Below, in pieces: positions 1,805 through 52,000 of a DNA stretch of 64,000 nt. Position 1 is the first letter of the stretch. The number at the start of each line of letters is the position of its first letter. This DNA is from an uncultured Candidatus Saccharibacteria bacterium. Its GTDB lineage: Bacteria; Patescibacteriota; Minisyncoccia; Phycocordibacterales; CALRHW01. Both the position numbers and the translations under genes were made by a program. Below the pieces are notes generated by a model. The model was not told the origin of the DNA. It saw nothing but the letters and a program-made list of their open reading frames with translations, and did no database searches. The stretch spans positions 11,307 to 75,306 of the forward strand of contig CAYMIL010000001.1 in assembly GCA_964390845.1 (NCBI GenBank). Reading direction: 5' to 3'.

Positions 1805-2701
1805 ATGAAAAAGATATTTTTTGCACTTATCGTGCTCGTTCTCGCTGGTTTCGGTATTTACTACGTTATGGGTAATCGTGCGGCCGCTCCTGCGCCTGTG
1901 CAAGAGCAACCTCAACAAGTACAAGAAGAAGCAACAACAACACCCGTTGTGCAAACTGGTCCCGAATCTGTCATCGGTACGTCGGTAGAAGGCAACGATA
2001 TTATGGCGTATCACTTTGGAAGCGGTCCGCAGGAGGTGTTGTTTGTCGGAGGTATTCATGGTGGCTATGAATGGAATACCGTGTTCCTTGGTTTTAAGCT
2101 TGTCGATTATCTCAAAGAAAATCCAACACTCATTCCTGCAAATCAGAAGGTTACGGTAATTCCTGTACTCAATCCAGATGGTCTTAAAAAGGTAGTTGGT
2201 TCCGCGGGACGTTTCTCACTCGATGCGGTTCCTTCTTCAGAGAGCGCAACAGTTCCTGGCCGTTTTAATGGCAACAATGTGGACCTCAACCGAAACTTTG
2301 ATTGTGATTGGCAAGAATCTGGCGTGTGGAGAAATACACCGGTAAGTGGTGGTGCGTCAGCATTTTCTGAGCCAGAAAGTCAGGCGCTTCGAGATTATGT
2401 ACAAAACAATAAGCCTGTTGCTGTTGTTGCGTGGTACAGTGCTGCGGGTGGTGTCTTTGCCTCAAGTTGTCACAATGGTGTATCTGCTGAAACTCGCACA
2501 ATCTTGAAAGCATATGCAGATGCGTCAAAGTATCCTGCACACGACGATTTTGATTTCTATGAAGTAACGGGGGATATGGTAAATTGGCTTGCAAAAGTAA
2601 ATGTTCCCGCAATCAGTATTCTTCTTACAAACCACACAAGCATTGAGTGGGACAAAAATCTTGCCGGTATACAAGCTGTTCTCAAACACTTCGCTCAATA
2701 A
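1805..2701 (+). CDS. membrane-anchored M14-family zinc carboxypeptidase-like protein, tandem paralog A
   Basis: GGIHGGYEWNT, NPDG, DLNRNF motifs; N-terminal TM. Confidence 0.6.
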   Translation: MKKIFFALIVLVLAGFGIYYVMGNRAAAPAPVQEQPQQVQEEATTTPVVQTGPESVIGTSVEGNDIMAYHFGSGPQEVLFVGGIHGGYEWNTVFLGFKLVDYLKENPTLIPANQKVTVIPVLNPDGLKKVVGSAGRFSLDAVPSSESATVPGRFNGNNVDLNRNFDCDWQESGVWRNTPVSGGASAFSEPESQALRDYVQNNKPVAVVAWYSAAGGVFASSCHNGVSAETRTILKAYADASKYPAHDDFDFYEVTGDMVNWLAKVNVPAISILLTNHTSIEWDKNLAGIQAVLKHFAQ

Positions 2702-2707
2702 TAGTAA

Positions 2708-3577
2708 GTGATGACTCCTCGCGCCAAGATACTTGCGACGATAAGTGTGCTCGTGGTGTGTGTGATCGGCGTTTTCTTGTGGCTTAGCACAAGGACTCCC
2801 GCGCCAGTAGAGCCTGCGCTCGAAGCAGTACGCGCAGAACGTCGCGCCGTGATAGGTACATCGCAGGAAGGTCGGTCTATTGAGGCATACACATTTGGAA
2901 ATGGATCGAAGACTCTTTTGTTTGTCGGAGGTATTCATGGTGGATATGAATGGAATACTGTACTTCTTGCGTATCAGTTTATAGACTATCTTTCACAACA
3001 CGCATCAGATATTCCCGACACGCTCTCTGTTGTCGTTATTCCATCTGCTAATCCAGACGGTGTGTACAAGGTTGTTGGAAAAGAGGGAAGGTTTACGCAA
3101 GCGGACGTTTCTCCAGATGCTTCAGTACAAGCGTCAGGTCGTTTCAATGCTCGTTCTGTAGATCTCAATAGAAACTTTGAGTGCGCATGGAAACCAGAAG
3201 CGACATGGCGTTCAAAAACCGTTAGCGCTGGTAGCGCGCCTTTTTCCGAAGCGGAAACACAAGTCTTGCAACAATTTATTCTGACCACACAACCAGTGGG
3301 TGTTGTCTTTTGGCACAGTCAGGCGAACACGGTGTACGCCGGTGATTGCGCAGGAGTTTTTCTGCCGTTGTCGTTATCGATGATGAATGAATATGCGTCA
3401 GCGGCAGGGTATCAGCGCGCAGAAACATTTGATAGTTATCCTGTAACAGGTTCTGCTGATGGGTGGCTTACGACAATCAATATTCCATCTATTACTGTTG
3501 AATTGCAGACACATGAGTCTGTGGAATGGGATAAAAATCTCGCGGGCAGCAAGGCACTCTTTTCTCTATTTAAGTAA
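2708..3577 (+). CDS. membrane-anchored M14-family zinc carboxypeptidase-like protein, tandem paralog B
   Basis: same GGIHGGYEWNTV / NPDG / DLNRNF motifs; alignable along full length with 1805-2701. Confidence 0.6.
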   Translation: MMTPRAKILATISVLVVCVIGVFLWLSTRTPAPVEPALEAVRAERRAVIGTSQEGRSIEAYTFGNGSKTLLFVGGIHGGYEWNTVLLAYQFIDYLSQHASDIPDTLSVVVIPSANPDGVYKVVGKEGRFTQADVSPDASVQASGRFNARSVDLNRNFECAWKPEATWRSKTVSAGSAPFSEAETQVLQQFILTTQPVGVVFWHSQANTVYAGDCAGVFLPLSLSMMNEYASAAGYQRAETFDSYPVTGSADGWLTTINIPSITVELQTHESVEWDKNLAGSKALFSLFK

Positions 3578-7999: not shown

Positions 8000-8431
8000 T
8001 CACTGTTTCGCGAGTTTCTGCTTGTGAGCCTCGGAAACAGACTTGTTGAGTCGTTCGATGAACGGCGCGGCACTTTCGGGCCACTTTCCGTCCGGATGCA
8101 CTTTGGTGTGGGTGAACACACCATTGCGATCTCGAAGTGAAAATGATTCCCATCGTCCATCTGCCTTGATGTCGCGCGCAGTGAGCAGGGTGAAGTCGGC
8201 GAACCTCATGCTCATCGGCGTGAGTATCACGACGCGGTCGTCGTAGCCCGTCTGCGAGTTGTAGTCCTCGCGCACGTTTACGGTACAACCGTCGTAGGAA
8301 CTCAGGTATTCCATGGGCGGATGTGGTGTCACATCGCCCTTGTTGTCTAGCCCGAGGAATACGAGCACCATGAGCGGGAGCGCTGCTGCGAAAGCAATCG
8401 CCCCACGAACCCTTGCGTATGTCCGAGTCAC
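8000..8431 (-). CDS. hypothetical secreted/membrane-anchored protein (high-GC island; GTG start with GGAGGAG SD; alternative ATG at 8485)
   Basis: N-terminal hydrophobic anchor AIAFAAALPLMVLVFLGL; GC-rich codon third positions. Confidence 0.4.
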   Translation of the reverse strand: MTRTYARVRGAIAFAAALPLMVLVFLGLDNKGDVTPHPPMEYLSSYDGCTVNVREDYNSQTGYDDRVVILTPMSMRFADFTLLTARDIKADGRWESFSLRDRNGVFTHTKVHPDGKWPESAAPFIERLNKSVSEAHKQKLAKQ

Positions 8432-8464
8432 GTCTTCTCCTCCATGAAAAGAGCTTGTTGACCT

Positions 8465-8520
8465 CTGGATTCCCCCGGAATCCATGACAAGGCCTTCACT
8501 ATTGATATTACCATATATGG
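8465..8520. promoter_or_regulatory. divergent intergenic region with two perfect palindromes: TGGATTCC-CCC-GGAATCCA (8465-8483) and ACCATATATGGT (8509-8520)
   Basis: read directly; lies between divergently oriented high-GC ORFs. Confidence 0.35.
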
Positions 8521-8570
8521 TAGAATTAAAAAGGATTTTGACATACCCTCATTTCGTGGAGACATCCACC

Positions 8571-9242
8571 ATGGATGGTCATTCCGTCGTTGCTGACGGC
8601 GTTTCTACGCACGCACCCCACATCAAAAAGAAGGAGGTTTCTTGTGGTGCTGAAGAAGCAGTGAATGCTTTTAAGCTCTACAGCATTTCAAAGCAGGTAG
8701 AATCGTTTGCTCGCCGTGGAGTTCGGAGGGGGTGTTCTCCCTTCGACTTCGAATGTCCGCGTGGGCATGGTATGCAAGGAAACATACTTGTTCCGAGAAT
8801 TGAGTTTCTCGGACGCAACAGAGAGGAGGCTGGTGTTCGGCTTGTGCGTGTGTTTGGAACCATGCTCAAGCATCGGTTTTCGAGCGTAGACCTGCGGGGT
8901 TCGACACTCGAAGACAAGACGACGCGCGGTCTTGCTCGTGTGCAGGAGTATCACATCAATCGAAACATGCAGTTCGTGGCACTGCCGGTACGCGTAGTGG
9001 TTGCTCAGTCTGACACACGCGACGACGAATTTGGCCTCGGCCTTGTCGAGACTATGTCGTTTGTGATGACCCATGTGCCTCGGTTGTGGGCACTTTATTC
9101 TGCCATTGGCACGTTTTCGATCCCGTGTCTTGGGGAGCGATTCTTCGAATTCGTCTTCCGTGATGGCGTGGTTGAGCTCGTTGCCTGTGAGCAGAATGCA
9201 GTGCTTCAGCGTGTGCATGTGTGGGCAACATGCTGGCGGTAG
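8571..9242 (+). CDS. hypothetical protein (high-GC island; ORF opens at 8484, ATG with GGAGA SD at 8571)
   Basis: long ORF with GC-rich third positions; no recognisable domain. Confidence 0.4.
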   Translation: MDGHSVVADGVSTHAPHIKKKEVSCGAEEAVNAFKLYSISKQVESFARRGVRRGCSPFDFECPRGHGMQGNILVPRIEFLGRNREEAGVRLVRVFGTMLKHRFSSVDLRGSTLEDKTTRGLARVQEYHINRNMQFVALPVRVVVAQSDTRDDEFGLGLVETMSFVMTHVPRLWALYSAIGTFSIPCLGERFFEFVFRDGVVELVACEQNAVLQRVHVWATCWR

Positions 9243-9263
9243 CGCGAGGGCTGTTCGTTGGAT

Positions 9264-9310
9264 AAAAAGGGGCCGGACGCGTTGCGCGTCCGGCCCTCTT
9301 CTTCTTTTTT
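9264..9310. terminator. bidirectional rho-independent terminator (GGGGCCGGACGCG-TTG-CGCGTCCGGCCC flanked by A-run and T-run)
   Basis: 12-bp GC stem read directly; convergent genes end on both sides. Confidence 0.6.
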
Positions 9311-11102: not shown

Positions 11103-11125
11103 CACGATGCAACGTTGTCATCGTG
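11103..11125. promoter_or_regulatory. inverted repeat CACGATG-N9-CATCGTG (spacer contains CAACGTTG) overlapping the pilB GTG start
   Basis: read directly. Confidence 0.25.
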
Positions 11126-12265
11126 TCTGTCATAGAAATCGTCAACACACTCCTCGAGCGCGCGAGGCTCTCATGTGCATCCGATATACATCTTCAGCCT
11201 ACACACCACAATGTGCGTGTGCGTTTTCGTGTTGATGGCGTGTTGCGCGACGAAGATACTCTCGACATACAGACGTATCCGGAAATTGTGTCGAGAATAA
11301 AAATTCTTTCGCACCTGCGTACTGATGAAAGAAATGCTCCTCAAGATGGTCGTTTTTCCTATGGCGGAGGAGATGTGCGAGTGTCATGTGTGCCATCGCA
11401 TCATGGTGAGTGTGTGGTGCTGAGATTACTTATGTATACGATGGGTAATTGTTCGTTGGAAAGCATGGGTTTTTCAGAAGGTGATGTGCAAAAGATATAC
11501 AGGGCACTTCAAAAACAGTGGGGTATGGTGCTTGTTACAGGTCCAACGGGTTCCGGAAAAACAACAACACTTTATTCACTTGCAAAAATTCTCAACAAAC
11601 CAGATGTTTCGATTGTAACAATCGAGGATCCGGTCGAATATGCGGTGGATGGAATGAAACAGATCAATATCAATCCGCGTAGTGGTCTTACGTTTGCACA
11701 TGGACTTCGTTCGGTGCTGCGGCAAGATCCAGACATTATCATGGTCGGCGAAATTCGAGATACAGAAACTGCACACATCGCAACGCATACAGCACTGACG
11801 GGGCACATGTTGTTGTCTACGCTACATACTGTCGATGCATCTTCTGCAATACCTAGGCTCGTCGATATGGGCGTTGAACCGTTTCTGATTTCCTCGACAC
11901 TTACAATGGTGATTGCTCAAAGACTTGTACGAAAAATATGTCCACAGTGCAAAACGACGCGAACACTTTCTCAAGCACAACGCAATGCACTGATGGGTGC
12001 ATACGGTTGGGAGATATCGTCTGTATATTATGGCGCAGGATGTGACGTGTGTGGACGCTGCGGCTTTGTTGGGCGTGAGGTGCTCGCTGAGATTCTTGAG
12101 GTGGATCAACACATACGAGATGTGATTGTGCATTCCCACGATGCGTCACACGTTCGTGCCGTTGCGCGTGAACATGGCATGGTCTCGATAGCGTCTCAGG
12201 GATTGGGCAAGATTATGCAGGGAGTCACGACACTTGAAGAGGTGCTTGAGCTTCTTCACGAATAA
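11123..12265 (+). CDS. pilB: type IV pilus/type II secretion assembly ATPase, GspE/PilB family (short form lacking N1 domain)
   Basis: Walker A GPTGSGKTTTLYS, Asp/His boxes, C-terminal tetracysteine CPQC...CDVCGRCG. Confidence 0.8.
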   Translation: MSVIEIVNTLLERARLSCASDIHLQPTHHNVRVRFRVDGVLRDEDTLDIQTYPEIVSRIKILSHLRTDERNAPQDGRFSYGGGDVRVSCVPSHHGECVVLRLLMYTMGNCSLESMGFSEGDVQKIYRALQKQWGMVLVTGPTGSGKTTTLYSLAKILNKPDVSIVTIEDPVEYAVDGMKQININPRSGLTFAHGLRSVLRQDPDIIMVGEIRDTETAHIATHTALTGHMLLSTLHTVDASSAIPRLVDMGVEPFLISSTLTMVIAQRLVRKICPQCKTTRTLSQAQRNALMGAYGWEISSVYYGAGCDVCGRCGFVGREVLAEILEVDQHIRDVIVHSHDASHVRAVAREHGMVSIASQGLGKIMQGVTTLEEVLELLHE

Positions 12266-12269
12266 ACAG

Positions 12270-13313
12270 ATGAGTGGTCTCAAAAAACAAGCGCACATGA
12301 TGTCTCGGATGGCGTTTCTTATGCGTGCGGATATGTCTGTCATAGAAAGCATACGGCTTTTGTGTGATCAGGCTCGATCACCTCGAGAGCGTAGGTTATT
12401 TGAAGCGCTTATATCGGGTGTTGCACGCGGAGACGCATTCAGCGATTGTCTTACATCTATACAACCACCATTTGATACTCTTGCGATTTCTATGATTCGC
12501 ACCGGTGAACGTACGGGAACACTTGCGCATACATTGTTTCTTGTCGCCGAAGAGCTTACCAAGCGAGAACGTCTTCGAAGAAAAATGACGTCCGCATTTC
12601 TGTATCCAGTGTGTATTGCTGTTGCAACGCTTGGTATTGCGGGAACAATTGTTCTCTATGTACTCCCTAAAATTACGCCGATTTTTTCTGGTATGGGAAA
12701 AGAGTTGCCATTCACAACCCGAACACTGATTGCAATTCACCATATTCTGCAGATCTACTGGGTGTGGTTTGTGCTCGTTGTGGCGATGTTGTGCGTGACA
12801 TCGTGGTATGTTTGGAGCAAGACAAAACGCGCACGCATGGTAGTGGAGCAAGTGCTTGTGCGTGTACCACTGTGTGGCGGTATCCTGCGTCGATATGAAA
12901 TTATCAGAGCGTGTCGGACAATCAGTACAATGCTTTCCGCCACAATTCCTATAGAAAAAGTTTTTTATGCGACAGCAGAAAGCGCATCCTTTGTATTGTA
13001 CGCAGAAGTGTACAAGCATGCTGCGCTTCGCGTAACGTCTGGTGCGCCACTGTATGTAGCACTAGCTGATTATGCATATGTATTTCCAGATATGGTGGTG
13101 CCCATGGTGCGCGTCGGTGAATCCTCTGGAAGTCTGCGTGATGTCTGCGTGCACCTCGCTGATCTATATGAAAAAGAGCTCGACGATATTGTTAAAAATC
13201 TTTCGAGCGTGATTGAGCCGGTGCTTATGGTGGTGATGGGTCTTCTCGTGGGTTTTATTGCAATTTCTATTATTAGTCCTATATATGGGATCACACAACA
13301 GCTTAGGCGGTAG
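12270..13313 (+). CDS. pilC: type IV pilus platform protein, GspF/PilC family (two T2SSF domains)
   Basis: duplicated T2SSF-like halves, 3 TM; follows pilB by 4 nt. Confidence 0.7.
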   Translation: MSGLKKQAHMMSRMAFLMRADMSVIESIRLLCDQARSPRERRLFEALISGVARGDAFSDCLTSIQPPFDTLAISMIRTGERTGTLAHTLFLVAEELTKRERLRRKMTSAFLYPVCIAVATLGIAGTIVLYVLPKITPIFSGMGKELPFTTRTLIAIHHILQIYWVWFVLVVAMLCVTSWYVWSKTKRARMVVEQVLVRVPLCGGILRRYEIIRACRTISTMLSATIPIEKVFYATAESASFVLYAEVYKHAALRVTSGAPLYVALADYAYVFPDMVVPMVRVGESSGSLRDVCVHLADLYEKELDDIVKNLSSVIEPVLMVVMGLLVGFIAISIISPIYGITQQLRR

Positions 13314-13320
13314 GGCATTT

Positions 13321-13749
13321 ATGGTGGAGGGCTTTACTCTTATAGAAGTGCTTGTCGTTCTTGCAATAACAAGCATGTTGTTTTTATGCGCGCCATTTTT
13401 AGATATTTCTGCTGTCGTACATACGTCTCCGCGTGATGAGGCACGTATCTTTTCACATGCGCTCCACGTGGCGAGAACTGCTTCACTAAACGGTATCAAT
13501 AATGATGCGCATGGCGTGCACGTTGGAGATGGTGTCTTTGTTGTGTTTTCTGGTAGCCAGTATCGTGAAGGTGTAGATGTAGATATTGAGTTCCCAAGAA
13601 ATATGTCTATAGATGTAGAGCCGTCAAACATTGATACTGTATTTGAAAAAGGAACAGCAGTGCATGGTAAACGTACTGTTGTGATGTTTGGTCACGGTGA
13701 ACATGCTGTGGCTGTAACGATTGGCTATGAAGGAGGAATTGATTTTTAA
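13321..13749 (+). CDS. prepilin-type N-terminal cleavage/methylation domain pseudopilin
   Basis: GFTLIEVLVVLAI class III signal motif. Confidence 0.6.
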   Translation: MVEGFTLIEVLVVLAITSMLFLCAPFLDISAVVHTSPRDEARIFSHALHVARTASLNGINNDAHGVHVGDGVFVVFSGSQYREGVDVDIEFPRNMSIDVEPSNIDTVFEKGTAVHGKRTVVMFGHGEHAVAVTIGYEGGIDF

Positions 13750-15118
13750 ACATCGAGGATTTTCGACACTGGAAATTATTATCGCGGTGGCGATTGTGTT
13801 GATTGCGCTCGCTGTGGCGGCGAGCGCTCTCTTTTCTGTAGACCTATCTACACTCGGCGGCGAGCTATCCCTTGCCTCAGTCTCTACGCTTGAAAAATAT
13901 TTTATAGAAATTTCACAATCTTCGAATGATACTGTCTCAGTGGGCACAGATATTACACAGTGTATACAAAGGGTACACATAGAAGATGTGGGGCTTATAC
14001 GTGGTATTCCTCGCGCGGTATCCGCTGAGTTTCTTGTTGTCGATACACATTTCCCTGAGCAAATTAAGGAAAGTTGTTATGCTCCCGAACCACACGCGCA
14101 AGATTGGGCTGAGTATTCGGTGCAGTCTTTTTTGCTGTCAGATGTTGTGCACCAAGAAACGATTACTGATATTGATGTCGTGTCTGGTATCGCGTACATA
14201 TCTCTCACAAGTGATAGTCCCACAAGCACAGATTTGATTGTATTTGATACCGAGCAGGGTTCTGTGATTTCATCAACTGATATTGGGAAAGGAATTGTCG
14301 CACTTGATGCAATACAAGGTTATGTGTTTACTGCAAATGAAAGCTCAACAACACAGCTCTCTGTTATTCGTACAGACACACTAGAGCATCCCACTGTTGT
14401 AGCGGAGCGCGGCTTGCAAGGTGTCGACCCATACGGCTCTTTTCCGTATGGTAGAAGCGTTACGTATGTTGACGGTATCGTCTATGTTGGTACACGAGAA
14501 ACAGCTGGACCAGAATTTCACATGTTTGACGTGCACAACCTCGAGTCTCCCTATGAGGTTAGTTTTCTTGAGTTATCTCATAATGTTCACGATATCTCTG
14601 CAAAAAATGGCTTTGCATATCTTGCAACATCTGCGGACACAAAAGAAATTATCATTCTTGATGTACATGACCCATGGACGATACATGAAGTCGGGTCATT
14701 TAACGCAGGCACAAGCGCGAGTGCGGATAGGGATGCAATGAGTGAGTATCTCATTGGCACAACACTCTATGCTGGTCGTCGGCGCGGTAACGCGCAGACT
14801 CGAGAGTTGTATGCGATAGACATGGCTTCTTCAACGGCACCGTTGGAACGTTTTTCCGTGCGTGTACCACTTTCTGGTACAACACATATCAGTGGGCTCA
14901 TCGCGCAGGGAAATGTGCTGTTTGTATCGAGTACAGATCCAGCGTACGGTTTTAGTGTGTATGACATGTCAGATGTTGGGAATGTACGACGTTTAGAGAC
15001 TACCGTGTTTGCTGAAGCTATCGATGCACTTGATAGTGAAAATGGAGTGGTCTATGGTGTGAGTAATTCTAAAAAGAGTATCTATGTATTCAAACCATCG
15101 AGGGTTTACGCTCATTGA
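13721..15118 (+). CDS. large pilin-like protein: prepilin N-terminus fused to LVIVD-repeat beta-propeller-like domain
   Basis: RGFSTLEIIIAVAIV prepilin motif; at least 6 repeats of G(F/I/V)AY...(I/V)(F/L)D(V/T)..P type. Confidence 0.55.
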   Translation: MAMKEELIFKHRGFSTLEIIIAVAIVLIALAVAASALFSVDLSTLGGELSLASVSTLEKYFIEISQSSNDTVSVGTDITQCIQRVHIEDVGLIRGIPRAVSAEFLVVDTHFPEQIKESCYAPEPHAQDWAEYSVQSFLLSDVVHQETITDIDVVSGIAYISLTSDSPTSTDLIVFDTEQGSVISSTDIGKGIVALDAIQGYVFTANESSTTQLSVIRTDTLEHPTVVAERGLQGVDPYGSFPYGRSVTYVDGIVYVGTRETAGPEFHMFDVHNLESPYEVSFLELSHNVHDISAKNGFAYLATSADTKEIIILDVHDPWTIHEVGSFNAGTSASADRDAMSEYLIGTTLYAGRRRGNAQTRELYAIDMASSTAPLERFSVRVPLSGTTHISGLIAQGNVLFVSSTDPAYGFSVYDMSDVGNVRRLETTVFAEAIDALDSENGVVYGVSNSKKSIYVFKPSRVYAH

Positions 15119-15545
15119 GGTACTCATCTATATCGGTTTGCTGTCTGTCATACTTTCCGGCGTTTTTGTGACAGCTGTATATCTTATTGAGTACGGCGAT
15201 GCGCGTACTCGGAAGATTGAAACCTTGGAGGATAGTCAATTCGTGATAGAAAAAATACAATCTTTTCAAAATTTTGGTTTTGACGTGGTGGAGCCAGCGG
15301 TTGGTGCAACAAGCTCAAAGCTTATTCTCGAGCGTGGAGATGAGCGTGTGAGTGTGTACGCAAGCACTGGTGCTGTGTTACTGCAGAGAAATGATGGTCT
15401 ACCAGAAGCGCTTACGCGACGTGGTCTGTTTGTTCATGCATCGAGTACGCTCGAATTTTCTTTTCTTGAAGAGGGTGGTGTGTTTGTGTATTTATTCATG
15501 AATGGTTTGTTATCTACTACACATATATGGATGTATGGCGTATAA
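15084..15545 (+). CDS. prepilin-type pseudopilin
   Basis: MYSNHRGFTLIEVLIYIGLL. Confidence 0.5.
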   Translation: MYSNHRGFTLIEVLIYIGLLSVILSGVFVTAVYLIEYGDARTRKIETLEDSQFVIEKIQSFQNFGFDVVEPAVGATSSKLILERGDERVSVYASTGAVLLQRNDGLPEALTRRGLFVHASSTLEFSFLEEGGVFVYLFMNGLLSTTHIWMYGV

Positions 15546-15916
15546 GACAGGGGGGTTATATTGCAGTAATGTCGGCAGTAGTGCTGTCGGTGGTATTAAT
15601 GGCGCTGTCCGTGCGTCTATCTGTTGCAGGTCTTTCGACGAAGTGGGCTAGTGTGTACCATGAAGGGCGCGCACGCGCTCAATTTCTCGTGTATTCGTGC
15701 ATTGATGTCGCGAGGCTATTTGTCGCTCAACATAGTTCTTATGGTGACGTGTACACCGTGCCGGTGGGAGACGAGGAGTGCACAATAGCGTTTGTGCAAA
15801 GAGATGGCCAGTATATTGTGGTGGATAGTTCGGCACAGGTCTCAGAGAGTCTTTTGGGTGTACGAGTTTCTATCGACACCCATTCTCCCACCTATGAGTG
15901 GCATATCGTGCGCTGA
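15527..15916 (+). CDS. pilus-operon membrane protein (possible PilX-like minor pilin)
   Basis: N-terminal hydrophobic helix, position in pilin operon; no canonical G-F motif. Confidence 0.35.
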   Translation: MDVWRIRQGGYIAVMSAVVLSVVLMALSVRLSVAGLSTKWASVYHEGRARAQFLVYSCIDVARLFVAQHSSYGDVYTVPVGDEECTIAFVQRDGQYIVVDSSAQVSESLLGVRVSIDTHSPTYEWHIVR

Positions 15917-15935
15917 GTTTGATACAATACACAAC

Positions 15936-17177
15936 ATGAAGAAACAGAAAATCGTGATTCTCGGAGGTGGTTTTGGAGGTGTGTACTCGTACTTGTCGTT
16001 AAGAAAGTATCTTGGTCGCAATGAGGCTGAGGTTGTGTTTATCAGTAAGACAAACTATTTTCTGTTTACGCCACTTCTCCATGAGGTTGCAACTGGCGGG
16101 CTTGATGATGAAGAGGTTGTTGAGTCTATACGAAGTATTTCATACAAAACAGGCGCGGACGTCATGGTTGCTGATGTTGTGGGTGTCGATACGGAGCGTC
16201 GTGTTGTACGCACGTCTTCTGGAGACGTCTCATACGACTACCTCGTTGTTGCTCTTGGTGGTACGACAAATTTCTACAATATTCCCGGTGCGCAAGAACA
16301 TGCTTTGGTACTTAAAGATTTAGCAAATGCAGTCGATATTCGCAATCGATTCATTTCTACATTTGAAGAGGCATCCCATATTGAAAATGCAGAGACAAGA
16401 AAAAAGATGTTAAGTTTTGTAGTGGTAGGTGGTGGTCCTACGGGCGTAGAGCTTGTTGCAGAAATGGCAGATCTCTTTTTCAATGCGTTTCGTAAATATT
16501 ACAAAGGACATATCTGTGCGGGAGACGTATCTATTCACCTCATAAACAAAGGGCCAGAATTGCTCCCAATGTTTGATCCAGTGTTGCGGGCGCGCACACT
16601 CAGCGTACTTCGCGCAAAGGGTGTCGATGTGTTACTCAACAAAGATGTGTCGGAGGTTACAAAGCAAAGTGTGCGTTTGGCGGACGGTGAAGTGATTCCC
16701 GCATCGCATGTGTTGTGGGCTGCTGGCGTGATGCCTCAGCCTCTTGAGTTTGATAGAGAGGTCGAGCGTGACCGTGGAGGTCGGATTATTGTTGATGAAT
16801 TTTTGCGTGTAAAAAATACTGACACATTGTTTGCACTTGGAGATATTGCATCCTACACGCCAGATGCGGGAATGCCTCTACCAATGCTTGCGCAGGTTGC
16901 TGTTCAGCAGGGCGCTATTGTGGGGAAAAATATTGCCGCACATATACGGGGTCAACGTCTCTCACGCTTTACATATCACTCACGAGGAAGTCTTGTGTCA
17001 CTTGGTAAATGGCAGGCAGTAGGTAAGGTGTTTGGAACACTCTGGACGGGGCCACTTGGTTGGTGGATGTGGCGTACAGTCTATCTCTTCAATTTTGCAT
17101 CGTGGCCGAAGCGTATCAAGATTGCCGTTGATTGGACGATACACCTCTTTTACCCTCGAGATATTACAAAGGCATAA
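15936..17177 (+). CDS. ndh: type II NADH dehydrogenase / FAD-dependent pyridine nucleotide-disulfide oxidoreductase
   Basis: two Rossmann GxGxxG motifs (ILGGGFGG, VVGGGPTGVE). Confidence 0.7.
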   Translation: MKKQKIVILGGGFGGVYSYLSLRKYLGRNEAEVVFISKTNYFLFTPLLHEVATGGLDDEEVVESIRSISYKTGADVMVADVVGVDTERRVVRTSSGDVSYDYLVVALGGTTNFYNIPGAQEHALVLKDLANAVDIRNRFISTFEEASHIENAETRKKMLSFVVVGGGPTGVELVAEMADLFFNAFRKYYKGHICAGDVSIHLINKGPELLPMFDPVLRARTLSVLRAKGVDVLLNKDVSEVTKQSVRLADGEVIPASHVLWAAGVMPQPLEFDREVERDRGGRIIVDEFLRVKNTDTLFALGDIASYTPDAGMPLPMLAQVAVQQGAIVGKNIAAHIRGQRLSRFTYHSRGSLVSLGKWQAVGKVFGTLWTGPLGWWMWRTVYLFNFASWPKRIKIAVDWTIHLFYPRDITKA

Positions 17178-17325
17178 CCCATTGCGTCTTTAATATTTGT
17201 GTTGTACGATATTTCTTGGTAGTTCATCGTTGTGTTTTCGCGTTGGATTCCACTGTGCGTGTCCCTATGGATGGGGCTGCCTGTGCCCGACAGTTTTCGG
17301 GTAACATCGCGTTTGGAGAATTGTC

Positions 17326-17838
17326 TTGACCTCTTACCTCGAACACTACAAGAAGAAGTTGGCTCGCGATCGCAGCAGTCCTGCGATGCGACAGGCGCGG
17401 CGTCCGACCGGAGCTCCTCTCATCATCCCCGATGACGAGCAGAAGCGTCTGGATCGGATCAAGAAGCGCCGCGCTGCTGAGATCGCCGCGCGTAAGCGCA
17501 AGCTTGAGAAGCCGGACCCGCCTCCGCGCGAGCTCGGGTGGATGCGCTTCGTGCGCTACGTTGTCGATGGGAAGGAGATGTACTGGCCTTCTGGCGGCCC
17601 TGTGTGGGTTGCGTATCAGGACAACACGATGTTCGTCCTGCCGGAGGGCTGTCTGCTCTTTCACGGTCGCAACGTTGAGGATTTCGAGATTGAGTGCCGT
17701 GAGGGTGCTCGGGTTGAGCTCCCGTCGCTTCCCAACGTCGCGCCCGTGTCCGCAATGACTGCCGGACCCAAGGATTTCCGTGTCGTCGTGGAGGAATTCA
17801 CCATGCCCAAGGCAAGCAAGAAGCGTGTCGCGGCCTAG
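17326..17838 (+). CDS. hypothetical basic N-terminus protein in ~60% GC island (TTG start, GGAGAA SD)
   Basis: strong GC3 bias in this frame versus antisense ORF 17224-17901. Confidence 0.4.
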   Translation: MTSYLEHYKKKLARDRSSPAMRQARRPTGAPLIIPDDEQKRLDRIKKRRAAEIAARKRKLEKPDPPPRELGWMRFVRYVVDGKEMYWPSGGPVWVAYQDNTMFVLPEGCLLFHGRNVEDFEIECREGARVELPSLPNVAPVSAMTAGPKDFRVVVEEFTMPKASKKRVAA

Positions 17839-17873
17839 GCTGGGCATCAACAAGCGCAGAAAACACAATCCCT

Positions 17874-17910
17874 GGGGAGTTGGCTTACGCCGACTCCCCA
17901 CATTTTTTTC
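17874..17910. terminator. bidirectional terminator GGGGAGTTGGC-TTAC-GCCGACTCCCC + T7
   Basis: read directly; loop contains stop codon of minus-strand gene. Confidence 0.55.
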
Positions 17911-48995: not shown

Positions 48996-50798
48996 ATGAA
49001 TTCACAGCAGATTCGAAGCGCATTTTTGGCCTTTTTTAAAGAACGCGGACACGCCGTGTTGCCCTCAGCATCTCTGGTTACGACTGATGAAAAGGGTGTA
49101 ACAGACAATACACTTTTTAATACGGCGGGTATGCAGCCGCTTATTCCGTACTTGCTTGGCGCACAACACAAAGAGGGTACGCGTCTCGCAAGCTCACAAA
49201 AGTGTTTGCGCACAACTGACATCGACAGTGTTGGAGATAATACGCACGCAACCTTTTTTGAAATGCTCGGCAACTGGTCGCTTGGGGATTATTTTAAAAA
49301 AGAGGCAATAGAGTGGAGTTTTGAATTTCTGACATCAAAAGAAAAAGGTCTTGGCTTGGATCCGCGCCGTTTGTATGTGACGGTGTTTGAAGGAGATGAG
49401 AATGCACCAAAAGACGAAGAGTCGTATGTGCTATGGAAAGATATATTTGCTCGGCACAATATTTCTGGTGAGCGAATCTATTACATGGGCGCAAAAAGTA
49501 ATTGGTGGAGTGCTGGAGACAACGGTCCATGTGGTCCCGACACTGAGATGTTTTATGATCTTACAGGTACGCTTCTTGATGGTATGACGCGGGAGGAGTA
49601 TATGCGTGCTGACGATGAGCAGAAGGTTGTCGAAGTTTGGAATGACGTCTTTATGGAGTATGAAAAGAAAGATGGTCGGGTTGTGGGTAAGCTTCCGCGA
49701 CACAACGTCGACACAGGTGCTGGCCTCGAGCGCTTACTTGCTGTGCTGTCTGGTGCGCGGTCTATTTTTGACACAGACGTGCTTGCTCCGCTTGTGCGTG
49801 TGGCCGAAAAAATAGCGGACACAACTCGAGCACAACGTATCATTGCTGACCATATTCGCACCTCAGTATTTCTTATCGCCGACGGCGTTACGCCCTCAAA
49901 CACAGATAGAGGCTATATTCTTCGCCGACTTCTTCGTCGTGCAGTGCTCAATACACGCACACACAACATAGATGCAGGTACATTGAGTGAATTTCTCGGG
50001 CATGTTTCCACGGTATATGGCACAGAATATCCAGAAATAACAGCACAGCGTGCATCGATTGAAAGTGTTATACATCAGGAGGTGGAAAAATTTAGAAAAA
50101 CGTTGTCTGACGGTATAAAGCAGTTTGAGAAAATAATATCGCAATCACAAGGCACCATTTCTGGCACCGATGCATTTGTGCTTTTTTCTACGTATGGTTT
50201 CCCAATAGAAATGACACAGGAACTTGCTCAAGAACGAGGGGTGAAAGTCGACATGGAGAGTTTTAAAACTGAGTTTTCACAACACCAAGAACGCTCTCGC
50301 GCGGGTGCTGAGCAAAAATTCAAGGGAGGTCTTGCGGGGACAGACGACATGTCTGTGCGGTACCACACTGCTACACATTTGTTGCATCAAGCGCTTCGGG
50401 ATGTTCTTGGCGAGCATGTAGAACAGCGTGGTTCAAATATTACTCCTGAGCGATTACGATTTGATTTTACGCATCCTCAAAAAATGACAGACGAAGAGAA
50501 GCGTCGAGTTGAAGAAATTGTAAATCAAAAAATTACAGCATCTCTCCCAGTACACTGTGTTGTGTTGCCAAAAGACGAAGCACTACGCACAGGTGCACGA
50601 CACCTTTTTAATGAAAAATATGGAGATGAAGTGAGTGTGTATATTATTGGCGACACACTCGACACGGCATATTCAAAAGAATTTTGTGGTGGACCACATG
50701 TAAACAATACACGTGAGCTTGGCGTCTTCTCAATCGTGAAAGAAGAAGCAGTTTCTTCAGGCGTTCGACGCATCAAGGCAATTCTTTCTGTGGTATAA
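48996..50798 (+). CDS. alaS: alanyl-tRNA synthetase, short form (catalytic + editing, no C-Ala domain)
   Basis: class II motifs, editing HxxxH (HTATHLLH) and CGGPHV. Confidence 0.85.
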   Translation: MNSQQIRSAFLAFFKERGHAVLPSASLVTTDEKGVTDNTLFNTAGMQPLIPYLLGAQHKEGTRLASSQKCLRTTDIDSVGDNTHATFFEMLGNWSLGDYFKKEAIEWSFEFLTSKEKGLGLDPRRLYVTVFEGDENAPKDEESYVLWKDIFARHNISGERIYYMGAKSNWWSAGDNGPCGPDTEMFYDLTGTLLDGMTREEYMRADDEQKVVEVWNDVFMEYEKKDGRVVGKLPRHNVDTGAGLERLLAVLSGARSIFDTDVLAPLVRVAEKIADTTRAQRIIADHIRTSVFLIADGVTPSNTDRGYILRRLLRRAVLNTRTHNIDAGTLSEFLGHVSTVYGTEYPEITAQRASIESVIHQEVEKFRKTLSDGIKQFEKIISQSQGTISGTDAFVLFSTYGFPIEMTQELAQERGVKVDMESFKTEFSQHQERSRAGAEQKFKGGLAGTDDMSVRYHTATHLLHQALRDVLGEHVEQRGSNITPERLRFDFTHPQKMTDEEKRRVEEIVNQKITASLPVHCVVLPKDEALRTGARHLFNEKYGDEVSVYIIGDTLDTAYSKEFCGGPHVNNTRELGVFSIVKEEAVSSGVRRIKAILSVV

Positions 50799-52000
50799 TG
50801 TACGGCATGTCAGAGGTAAATCTCGTACTCGACATCGGAAACGGTAGTGTCGGCGCGGCACTTGTCGTCTTTGCGCGCGGCGCGAAACCCCGTATGGTGT
50901 TTACTCACCGAGCACCTCTCTCTATTCCTATACAACCAGACTCAAAACATCTCTCTGCGGTGATGCTCTCTGCGCTTGAGTCGGCGGTTTCGCATGTGGC
51001 AGAGCAGGGCCCACACGTTCTCCACTCGCTTGGCATAAAAAACGAAAAAGTTCGTCACACATTTTGTATCTTGGCATCACCATGGTATGCCTCAAAAACA
51101 AAAATTGTTCACATCGAAAATAAAGATCCTATTTTTATTACAAAAGGTTTTGTACGCGAGTTGCTCGACAAAGAAGAAGGGTTGTTTGAAGAAAATCTAC
51201 TCGTACACAGCGAAGGTGTTTTTTCCAAGGGCGACTTTAAGGTAATTGAGAAAAAAGTAATTCATACAACACTCAATGGTTATAGCACATCGAGTCCGTA
51301 TGAAAAACGAGCTGAGCATATTGAGCTTGCTATCCACCTAAGTGTCGCTCCTACGAGCGTTGTCGATGCGATCGAGCGCATTGTGGGCAAGTTTTTCTAT
51401 GCAAAACACATGCTTATTCACTCGTTTCCTCTAGTGGGGCAAAGCGTAGTGAGCGACCTAGCGCCATCAGAAACAAATTTCCTCTTTGTTGATGTGTCTG
51501 CTGAAGTGACAGACGTTTCTTTTGTTGAAAACCATGTTCTTATGGAAACTGCGTCATTTCCTATGGGTAGAAATCATTTGGTGCGGGAGATAGCAAAGGC
51601 ATTTGATGTAACAACAGACATCGCGATGTCATTTGCGAGTTTGCACGCACACGACAACGCCGAGCGTGCTGTTGCGCAAAAAATTGATGCAACATACGCA
51701 GAGGCACACACTGTGTGGGGAAATTATTTTTCGGGAGTAGTGAGCGACATGATACGGGAGCGCGTACCCGCAAAAATATTTGTGACAGCAGATGAAGAGC
51801 TCGCTCCTGTGTTTGTATCATGTATCAAAAAAAATCTCGCCCCCATGGCGCAAGGCACGATCAATTTGCAGGGAACACCTGTGGTACTTCTCGACACACA
51901 AGCGCTCTGTGCACTTGTCGACACTGATGCGCATACAGCGCACGACCCATTTTTGGCAATCGAAAGCATTTTCTTTTCAAAGTTGTTCAATGAGCAATAA
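50798..52000 (+). CDS. FtsA/PilM-like actin-fold protein with degenerate phosphate-binding motifs
   Basis: LVLDIGNGSVGAALV (phosphate 1-like), FVDVSAEVTDVS in place of DxGGGTxD, adenosine-like MGRNHLVREIAKAF. Confidence 0.4.
   Translation: MYGMSEVNLVLDIGNGSVGAALVVFARGAKPRMVFTHRAPLSIPIQPDSKHLSAVMLSALESAVSHVAEQGPHVLHSLGIKNEKVRHTFCILASPWYASKTKIVHIENKDPIFITKGFVRELLDKEEGLFEENLLVHSEGVFSKGDFKVIEKKVIHTTLNGYSTSSPYEKRAEHIELAIHLSVAPTSVVDAIERIVGKFFYAKHMLIHSFPLVGQSVVSDLAPSETNFLFVDVSAEVTDVSFVENHVLMETASFPMGRNHLVREIAKAFDVTTDIAMSFASLHAHDNAERAVAQKIDATYAEAHTVWGNYFSGVVSDMIRERVPAKIFVTADEELAPVFVSCIKKNLAPMAQGTINLQGTPVVLLDTQALCALVDTDAHTAHDPFLAIESIFFSKLFNEQ

Follow-up and report, generated by a model that had tools for sequence, protein, structure and literature searches.

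In a 64,000-nucleotide stretch of contig CAYMIL010000001.1, from an uncultured Candidatus Saccharibacteria bacterium (this whole stretch is hereafter called the window), six adjacent genes at positions 11123-15916 form a type IV pilus cassette in which one of four consecutive pilins is fused to a seven-bladed beta-propeller. We favour, with reasonable though not high confidence and by analogy with filaments described in other bacteria, the reading that this propeller pilin is the effector-bearing member of a tip complex of the HIJK type (GspH-I-J-K), in a minimal type IV filament with a ligand-binding head.

A propeller-bearing pilin among four minor pilins

All six open reading frames (ORFs) lie on the + strand, and neighbours either touch or share between a few and about 35 nucleotides, which marks them as a single operon (11123-15916). 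A preliminary description of this DNA had recognized a type IV pilus locus, and our analysis bears this out: the six ORFs have the coordinates given there, they encode a PF00437 ATPase, a T2SSF platform protein and pilins, and their synteny is conserved. The genes and the parts of the propeller pilin are as follows (a slash in a protein sequence marks the prepilin cleavage site).

11123..12265, + strand: extension ATPase of the PilB/GspE family; 380 amino acids, GTG start; PF00437 at E=3.6e-117, positions 8-369 of 370
12270..13313, + strand: platform protein PilC/GspF; 347 amino acids from ATG 12270; PF00482 in two stretches, E=2.3e-48
13285..13749, + strand: minor pilin 1, GspH/FimU-like; 154 amino acids from ATG 13285 or 142 from ATG 13321
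13727..15118, + strand: modular minor pilin with propeller; 463 amino acids from ATG 13727; identical to database protein P0001
13727-13759, + strand: its leader, MKEELIFKHRG
13760-14107, + strand: its alpha1 helix and three-stranded pilin moiety, which is short and has two invariant cysteines
about 14108-15100, + strand: its propeller
15084..15545, + strand: minor pilin 3; 153 amino acids; N_methyl at E=9.1e-8; 35-nucleotide overlap with the propeller pilin gene
15527..15916, + strand: putative cap/nucleator minor pilin lacking Glu5, GspK/GspI-like; 129 amino acids; ...RQGG/YIAVMSAVVL; without the alpha-domain insert

The product of 13721-15118 had been credited with a canonical prepilin N-terminus, and both the Gly at -1 and the Glu at +5 are indeed present and conserved throughout the family. 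The cleavage site reads MKEELIFKHRG/FSTLEIIIAVAIVLIALAVAASALF (that is, MKEELIFKHRG/FSTLE), with Phe at +1. In an alignment of 64 family members, E+5 never varies and G-1 is kept in at least 90%. Among 138 relatives of 430-620 amino acids, taken from seven word-indexed homologues plus the best hidden Markov model (HMM) matches listed, 124 show the pattern x-x4-E followed by a hydrophobic stretch, with Gly at -1 in 121 of these; mid-length relatives without the pattern are mostly visibly truncated gene calls. The window protein itself scores just below the cut-offs of N_methyl (PF07963; 14.0 versus 21.2 bits) and TIGR02532 (15.5 versus 16.3 bits), and five of its seven close homologues match N_methyl (best E=8.1e-4). 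A perfect Shine-Dalgarno-like AAGGAGG is found at 13730-13736, just past the ATG and 2 nucleotides before an in-frame TTG (13739), so that the true leader could comprise 7 rather than 11 residues; both lengths fit a prepilin. A G+C-rich hairpin with a T-rich run (13805-13827; 10 bp stem, 8 G-C pairs) lies within the sequence coding for the N-terminal part of alpha1 (alpha1N). It is the best terminator-like match of the region, yet probably a by-product of Ala codons; the promoter and terminator scan of the region was otherwise uninformative.

An AlphaFold2 model built on the seven homologues (mean predicted local distance difference test score (pLDDT) 79, predicted template modelling score 0.77) places a helix at residues 16-65 and three strands at 71-107, with low-to-moderate confidence, followed by 28 strands arranged as seven four-stranded blades (132-459; pLDDT about 85-95), the first strand closing blade 7. 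The beta-propeller fold announced by the preliminary description is thus recovered, and its count of at least six repeats can be raised to seven, as the model and the blade HMMs agree. HMMs built from single blades find other blades of the same protein in register (for instance, the HMM of blade 6 picks up blade 4 at 6e-10, and that of blade 5 picks up blade 3 at 6e-8), confirming seven sequence repeats of the type ...xAYVAxxxxxxLxVxDVxxPxxP...; these tandem repeats of about 45 residues are those that fold as the propeller. Two observations had been named in advance as speaking against the description, namely the lack of a propeller fold and failure of the G-1/E+5 site; both were looked for and neither was encountered. 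With an N-terminal pilin module joined to a domain non-specific to type IV pilus biology, the protein is a modular type IV pilin in the sense of Raynaud et al. 2021.

The resemblance of the blades to LVIVD repeats, also proposed earlier, holds for relatives of the window protein rather than for the protein itself. The LVIVD HMM (PF08309) gives no match on the latter even at E<=10, but matches six of the seven full-length homologues (best E=1.6e-17); five of the seven also match Beta_propel. Since the LVIVD-matching homologues align to the window protein at E=8e-28 to 7e-84, the LVIVD label is correct by homology only. A direct Pfam/NCBIfam scan of the 465-residue product returned only sub-threshold matches to DUF6923 (E=0.003) and N_methyl, and sequence searches of the PDB, with the single protein as well as with the 64-sequence profile, matched only the pilin alpha1 helix. 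None of the seven members matches PilY1/Neisseria_PilC (PF05567) even at E<=10, and PilY1 is not among the top 50-60 structural matches; homology to PilY1 was ruled out on these two grounds. There is no RCC1 Pfam match in any of the seven members either, and the structural match to YncE is no better than those to dozens of unrelated WD40 propellers.

Across the 64 family members, the propeller domain is acidic (isoelectric point (pI) 4.05-5.74, median net charge -20). Conservation is highest in blades 2-4. Besides E+5, the invariant residues are C81 and C119, which flank the pilin moiety (ORF numbering), and E265. The latter belongs to a nearly invariant ETAGPEFHxFDV motif in the B-C loop of blade 3 (residues 260-272, nucleotides about 14498-14536), which, through E265, H267 and D270, may be a metal- or ligand-binding site.

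The three companion pilins complete the set. Minor pilin 1, cleaved at ...MVEG/FTLIEVLVVLAI (MVEG/FTLIE), matches N_methyl at E=4.8e-5 and TIGR02532 above its cut-off; N_methyl is found in all 22 of its orthologues and GspH (PF12019) in 4 of the 22 (best E=2.6e-4), and the orthologues keep an ERD...L..AR..A..N....HGV motif. Minor pilin 3, cleaved at MYSNHRG/FTLIEVLIYIGLL (MYSNHRG/FTLIE), has N_methyl in 20 of 20 orthologues and no other family, and is perhaps J-like as a subtype. Of the four class III signal peptides reported previously, these two and that of the propeller pilin are canonical (G-1, F+1, E+5), while the fourth (15527-15916) has Met at +5 (G/YIAVMS). As Glu never occupies this position in 20 orthologues, whose G/[FY]IAL[IM]S puts a hydrophobic residue there and which share two invariant Cys, the signal peptide of the 129-residue protein is degenerate. 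This protein has no family match. Modelled with a pLDDT of 85.7, it takes the lollipop fold of a textbook pilin, and its best structural neighbour is GspK, followed by others that include S. sanguinis PilA and GspI. In the PDB, sequence searches with pilins 1 and 3 retrieved only the pilin alpha1 helix, and those with the 129-residue protein retrieved nothing. A six-frame motif scan of the window found good prepilin motifs (G-1, F+1 and E+5, then a hydrophobic run about 20 residues long) only at this locus, in the three canonical pilins, so their clustering is not due to chance.

At the gene level, then, there are four consecutive pilin genes, one GspH-like and one K-like without Glu5. Given the GspH likeness of pilin 1 and the GspK/GspI- and PilA-like fold of the last product, the four look like a tip/priming complex of the HIJK type.

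Conservation of the cassette in Patescibacteria

A word-indexed homologue search had returned only 7-9 relatives of the propeller pilin, suggesting a rare family. This idea was overturned by an exhaustive HMM search, which recovered 22,947 proteins at E<=1e-3 and about 1,600 representative 50%-identity clusters at E<=1e-30. Among the best HMM matches listed, proteins are overwhelmingly 450-560 amino acids long and align end to end. Family members are publicly named 'hypothetical protein' and, once, 'Tfp pilus assembly protein PilE'. Four giant proteins (P0014, 1,998 amino acids; P0040, 1,266; P0125, 1,295; P0155, 1,650) combine a prepilin-type N-terminus with 7-20 separately matched LVIVD-type stretches; from their sequences, they look like multi-propeller modular pilins, and like surface-display proteins rather than assembly parts.

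Related loci were sought in one genome per species with a single peptide pattern, [RKA]ETAGPE[FL]H, derived from a 7-sequence alignment. The 23 loci recovered all come from metagenome-assembled genomes of Patescibacteria, including Paceibacteria, Adler-, Kaiser-, Lipton-, Giovannoni-, Taylor- and Nomurabacteria, a taxonomic survey biased towards close relatives because one pattern drove the scan. All six genes are present in 19 of the 23 loci, in the order ATPase, PilC, pilin 1, propeller pilin, pilin 3 and pilin lacking Glu5. Pilin 1 is missing in Baikal-type relatives (L001 6917-9497, L005 and L007), where the propeller pilin gene directly follows PilC; the H-like subunit thus seems dispensable in this subclade. 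The pilin lacking Glu5 has no phmmer match in L016 and L022, and the locus on the short contig L012 ends soon after pilin 3.

In many Paceibacteria loci, the cassette adjoins a highly conserved gene resembling that of a major pilin (GFTLIEILVVIGIIAILAGIVLVAINPARQF.QARDSQR...), identified as a conserved neighbour at the following positions.

L010 8481-8930: major-pilin-like gene, downstream of the cassette
L011 7877-8377: the same, downstream
L013 8731-9294: the same, downstream
L014 8189-8686: the same, downstream
L020 6269-6727: the same, downstream
L023 7817-8284: the same, downstream
L024 8410-8883: the same, downstream
L025 7954-8412: the same, downstream
L019 872-1369: the same, upstream

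The subclade of the window lacks this neighbour and has an NDH-2 gene in its place after the cassette (15936-17177 in the window). The major pilin of the window's organism must be encoded elsewhere.

Assembly machinery and surroundings of the cassette

The ATPase had been described as short and devoid of the N1 domain, in agreement with its alignments, which cover positions 109-484 of 486 in the GspE model (468.8 bits, below the cut-off of 630) and 181-560 of 564 in the PilB model (427 bits, below 675). As the alignments begin only at positions 109 and 181, respectively, the N-terminal N1/MshEN-type domain or domains are absent. The ComGA model gives 245.7 bits, below its cut-off of 300. The translation contains a Walker A motif (GPTGSGKTT), a Walker B motif, a His box and a CPQC...CDVC tetracysteine (CxxC...CxxC zinc motif). 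Tetracysteines of this type are typical of extension ATPases, not of retraction ATPases. In the public annotation of the same genome (L027 7739-8539), the ATPase is reduced to its last 266 amino acids and a gene of 65 amino acids is called on the opposite strand (window 11123-11464); the 266-residue call probably reflects a wrongly placed start codon. The idea of a fragmentary ATPase was ruled out, as the full T2SSE domain lies in frame in the 380-residue, GTG-initiated ORF.

For PilC, which had been recognized earlier and carries two T2SSF domains (E=2.3e-48), the probable start at ATG 12270 follows the public gene call; the ORF opens at TTG 12234, overlapping the ATPase stop. The protein aligns to positions 60-400 of 401 in the GspF model TIGR02120 with 244 bits (cut-off 424), and scores 121.5 bits against ComGB (cut-off 240). 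Matches to the ComGC/D/E/F models in the locus are confined to the N-terminal motif.

The locus therefore departs from each of three established types. Both the ComGA and the ComGB equivalog cut-offs expected of a Com pilus (T4dP, comGA-GG) are missed. For a type II secretion system (T2SS), GspE and GspF are below cut-off and no secretin or other Gsp component occurs in the window or in the neighbouring genes of related contigs. As for type IVa pili (T4aP; PilB/PilT/PilMNOPQ), PilB is below cut-off and N-terminally short, and the window has no second ATPase and no PilMNO.

Elsewhere in the window, a 400-residue protein (50798-52000, within the segment 50798-53423) shows a weak likeness to FtsA (E=0.004, below cut-off), compatible both with FtsA and with a PilM-like actin-fold ATPase; a 448-residue protein with a GlxA beta-barrel-like stretch comes after it in this segment, and no further pilus-related gene was recognized in the window. 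Two tandem, secreted-looking paralogues of M14 zinc carboxypeptidases are encoded at 1805-3577 (E=5e-20 and 1e-22). The segments 8000-9300 and 17224-17901 are richer in G+C (about 0.50-0.51 versus about 0.45) and have long ORFs overlapping on both strands; the ORF 17326-17838 has no Pfam match, and the public gene calls in both segments are also without family. Rfam searches of the window yielded a single tRNA only.

Probable role of the propeller pilin and comparison with known systems

In well-studied filaments, the H, I, J and K minor pilins prime assembly of, and cap, T2SS pseudopili, T4aP and Com pili (PMC9934059, PMC8179133, PMC12153270), and K lacks Glu5 because no subunit stands above it (PMC9934059). 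In Streptococcus sanguinis, the GspI-like PilA, which has no Glu5, nucleates a cap with two modular pilins; the modules grafted onto these act as adhesins and fit only at the tip (PMC9934059, PMC8179133). The Com pilus is capped by four minor pilins in a complex (PMC12153270). In the saccharibacterium TM7x, the minor pilin PilX2 bears a heptabladed propeller; filament extrusion and competence do not depend on it, but efficient host binding does: its deletion halves host binding while filaments persist (PMC11623550). By analogy, PilX2 is the closest functional precedent for the propeller pilin.

The cassette matches the published HIJK scheme gene by gene, which makes the propeller pilin most likely its effector-bearing tip member. 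The cassette would be the core assembly unit of a minimal, monoderm-style type IV filament in an ultra-small patescibacterium (Candidate Phyla Radiation (CPR), Paceibacteria-like). The N-terminally truncated PilB/GspE-type ATPase and the PilC platform would polymerize the pilins, and the four pilin genes would be the counterpart of the HIJK set (GspH-I-J-K / FimU-PilV-PilW-PilX / ComGD-G), whose products would prime assembly and end up as the filament cap. The 129-residue subunit lacking Glu5 would enter first and top the filament, and the GspH-like subunit would connect the tip complex to the shaft. The 463-residue subunit would be anchored in that complex by its alpha1 helix and its very short pilin moiety. 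Its acidic seven-bladed propeller has too much bulk to fit into the shaft and would sit at the distal end, serving as a ligand-binding effector; its ligand would most likely be a component of the host-cell envelope. The propeller is thus probably a binding head at the pilus tip, a tip adhesin by analogy. Our results document gene identities, motifs, folds, family size and how far fusion and synteny are conserved; the filament itself, the assembly order, the tip placement and the binding are predictions. The major pilin, the prepilin peptidase and possibly a retraction ATPase would be supplied from elsewhere in the genome.

Several observations weigh against this reading. Neither the window nor the flanking +/-8-10 kb of related contigs contains a major pilin, PilD, PilT or PilMNO, and the ATPase and platform fall under every NCBIfam equivalog cut-off, so that they fit no defined filament subtype. 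The pilin moiety of the modelled propeller pilin reaches a pLDDT of only 29-73. That the propeller should be so strongly conserved throughout a bacterial class, down to invariant residues and the ETAGPEFH motif, is atypical of an adhesin determining host range and better fits a conserved ligand or a structural role; conservation by loop class shows no clear face bias (top 0.40-0.43, bottom 0.40-0.48). A bolder version, which we consider possible but doubtful, makes the propeller pilin an obligatory core subunit, the cis-fused equivalent of PilY1 in a distinct filament subtype found throughout Paceibacteria (N-less ATPase, no PilMNO at the locus, HIJK-like set); its acidic propeller would recognize a conserved envelope ligand and the filament would be the organelle with which the largest CPR class primarily attaches to its hosts.

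The same conservation lends itself to a purely structural explanation, under which the propeller would stand for the C-terminal propeller of PilY1 fused in cis, and would nucleate or stabilize the tip, counter retraction or assist passage through the wall or surface layer, with no specific external ligand. The fixed position of the gene in a class-wide syntenic cassette and the invariant residues of the propeller are consistent with such a role, as is the situation in PilY1 proteins, where the propeller is a conserved 'carrier' and the adhesive modules vary (PMC8179133). Yet neither PF05567 nor the structural matches link the family to PilY1, the propeller pilin of TM7x is dispensable for filament extrusion (PMC11623550), and the giant multi-propeller prepilin-LVIVD proteins argue for surface display, so that we regard this explanation as unlikely. 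Slightly less probable still is a Com-like DNA-uptake pseudopilus, whose tip complex, propeller included, would capture extracellular DNA for import by ComEC and thereby supply an auxotrophic CPR cell with nucleotides. As in ComGA, the N-terminal domain of the ATPase is missing; the operon is laid out like comG (ATPase, platform, pilins), with no PilMNO or PilT nearby; Com pili of monoderms capture DNA with a tip complex of four minor pilins (PMC12153270); and parasitic Paceibacterales co-express ComEC with pilus genes (PMC10936435). Against this, the ComGA and ComGB scores are not only below cut-off but also lower than those of GspE/PilB and GspF/PilC, the likeness to YncE is unspecific, and TM7x mutants of the pilus bearing a propeller pilin retain wild-type competence (PMC11623550). 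A uniformly acidic propeller is, moreover, unfavourable for DNA binding, and DNA binding was set aside as the primary reading for this reason.

A T2SS-like secretion pseudopilus, or a non-polymerizing surface protein whose class III signal peptide serves only for export and membrane anchoring, as in the archaeal bindosome, appears very improbable. The highest NCBIfam scores of the ATPase and platform are those of GspE and GspF, the pilins include GspH and GspK/GspI likenesses, and LVIVD repeats are typical of bacterial and archaeal cell-surface proteins (PMC10210494). HIJK-type sets are, however, common to all type IV filaments (PMC9934059), so the Gsp likeness does not discriminate; every score lies under the T2SS equivalog cut-offs, and neither the window nor related neighbourhoods contain a secretin or another T2SS part. 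A conserved major pilin gene also adjoins the cassette in many relatives, which does not favour a secretion pseudopilus or an unpolymerized anchor. It likewise counts against them that CPR cells are known for pilus-like filaments, reportedly described by Luef et al. in 2015.

The design itself, N_methyl plus LVIVD, is already catalogued and widespread in the group, and involves no new principle. The combination IPR012902-IPR013211, with 1 to 12 LVIVD copies and CPR proteins included, is among the 264 modular-pilin architectures listed in 2021 (Dataset S1 of PMC8179133), where LVIVD (IPR013211; PMC10210494) is described as a motif without known function; within the literature searched, we found no publication linking LVIVD to CPR pili or describing the conserved cassette. 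What the present analysis adds is that the propeller pilin is a fixed part of a class-wide HIJK-like operon, that the last gene encodes a putative GspK/GspI-like cap, and that the ATPase systematically lacks its N-terminal region. The orphan LVIVD repeat thereby gains a defined cellular context, and the principle of an effector on an HIJK cap, seen in S. sanguinis and Saccharibacteria, is extended to another CPR lineage. Paceibacteria/Parcubacteria are the largest and least cultivated CPR branch, for which the question is how host cells are found and held. A tip subunit conserved class-wide, with a well-folded and soluble-looking propeller, offers a reagent for ligand hunting (pull-downs, glycan arrays, binding coupled to fluorescence in situ hybridization), and its gene a metagenome marker for this pilus type.

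Among known systems, the S. sanguinis PilB (vWA) and PilC (lectin) pilins, which act with PilA, resemble the propeller pilin in that a binding module is grafted onto an unusually short pilin moiety with a class III signal peptide of the canonical type, and in their monoderm context (Raynaud 2021, PMC8179133; Shahin 2023, PMC9934059). They differ in that the module of the window protein is a seven-bladed LVIVD propeller instead of vWA or lectin, that there are four minor pilins, one of them GspH-like, instead of three, that the window ATPase has no N-terminal domain, and that the family of the window protein is known from sequence alone. Similarly, PilX2 of T4P-2 in Nanosynbacter lyticus TM7x (Grossman 2024, PMC11623550) is a propeller-bearing minor pilin and proposed tip adhesin; it is described as having RCC1-type repeats and as lacking a predicted PilD signal peptide, whereas the window protein is of the LVIVD type, has a canonical G-1/E+5 site and belongs to a fixed HIJK-like operon.

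In diderm T4aP, PilY1/PilC is likewise a propeller protein placed at the tip through a priming complex of four minor pilins (FimU-PilV-PilW-PilX) encoded in the same operon (PMC8179133, PMC9934059). PilY1 is a very large non-pilin that docks non-covalently and has a distinct, modified propeller (PF05567) with variable N-terminal modules, while the propeller of the window protein is covalently fused to a pilin, has canonical WD40-like geometry and matches neither PF05567 nor, structurally, PilY1; the definition of PilY1/PilC tip adhesins (PF05567 / IPR008707, non-pilin) accordingly does not apply to it. Finally, the GspH-I-J-K pseudopilus tip (3CI0) resembles the cassette in its set of four minor pilins and in the GspH-like product of the first pilin gene. 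It differs from the cassette in that, in the latter, the subunit lacking Glu5 is without the alpha-domain insert of GspK, another subunit bears a propeller, the GspE/GspF scores stay below the equivalog cut-offs and the surrounding genes are free of T2SS components.

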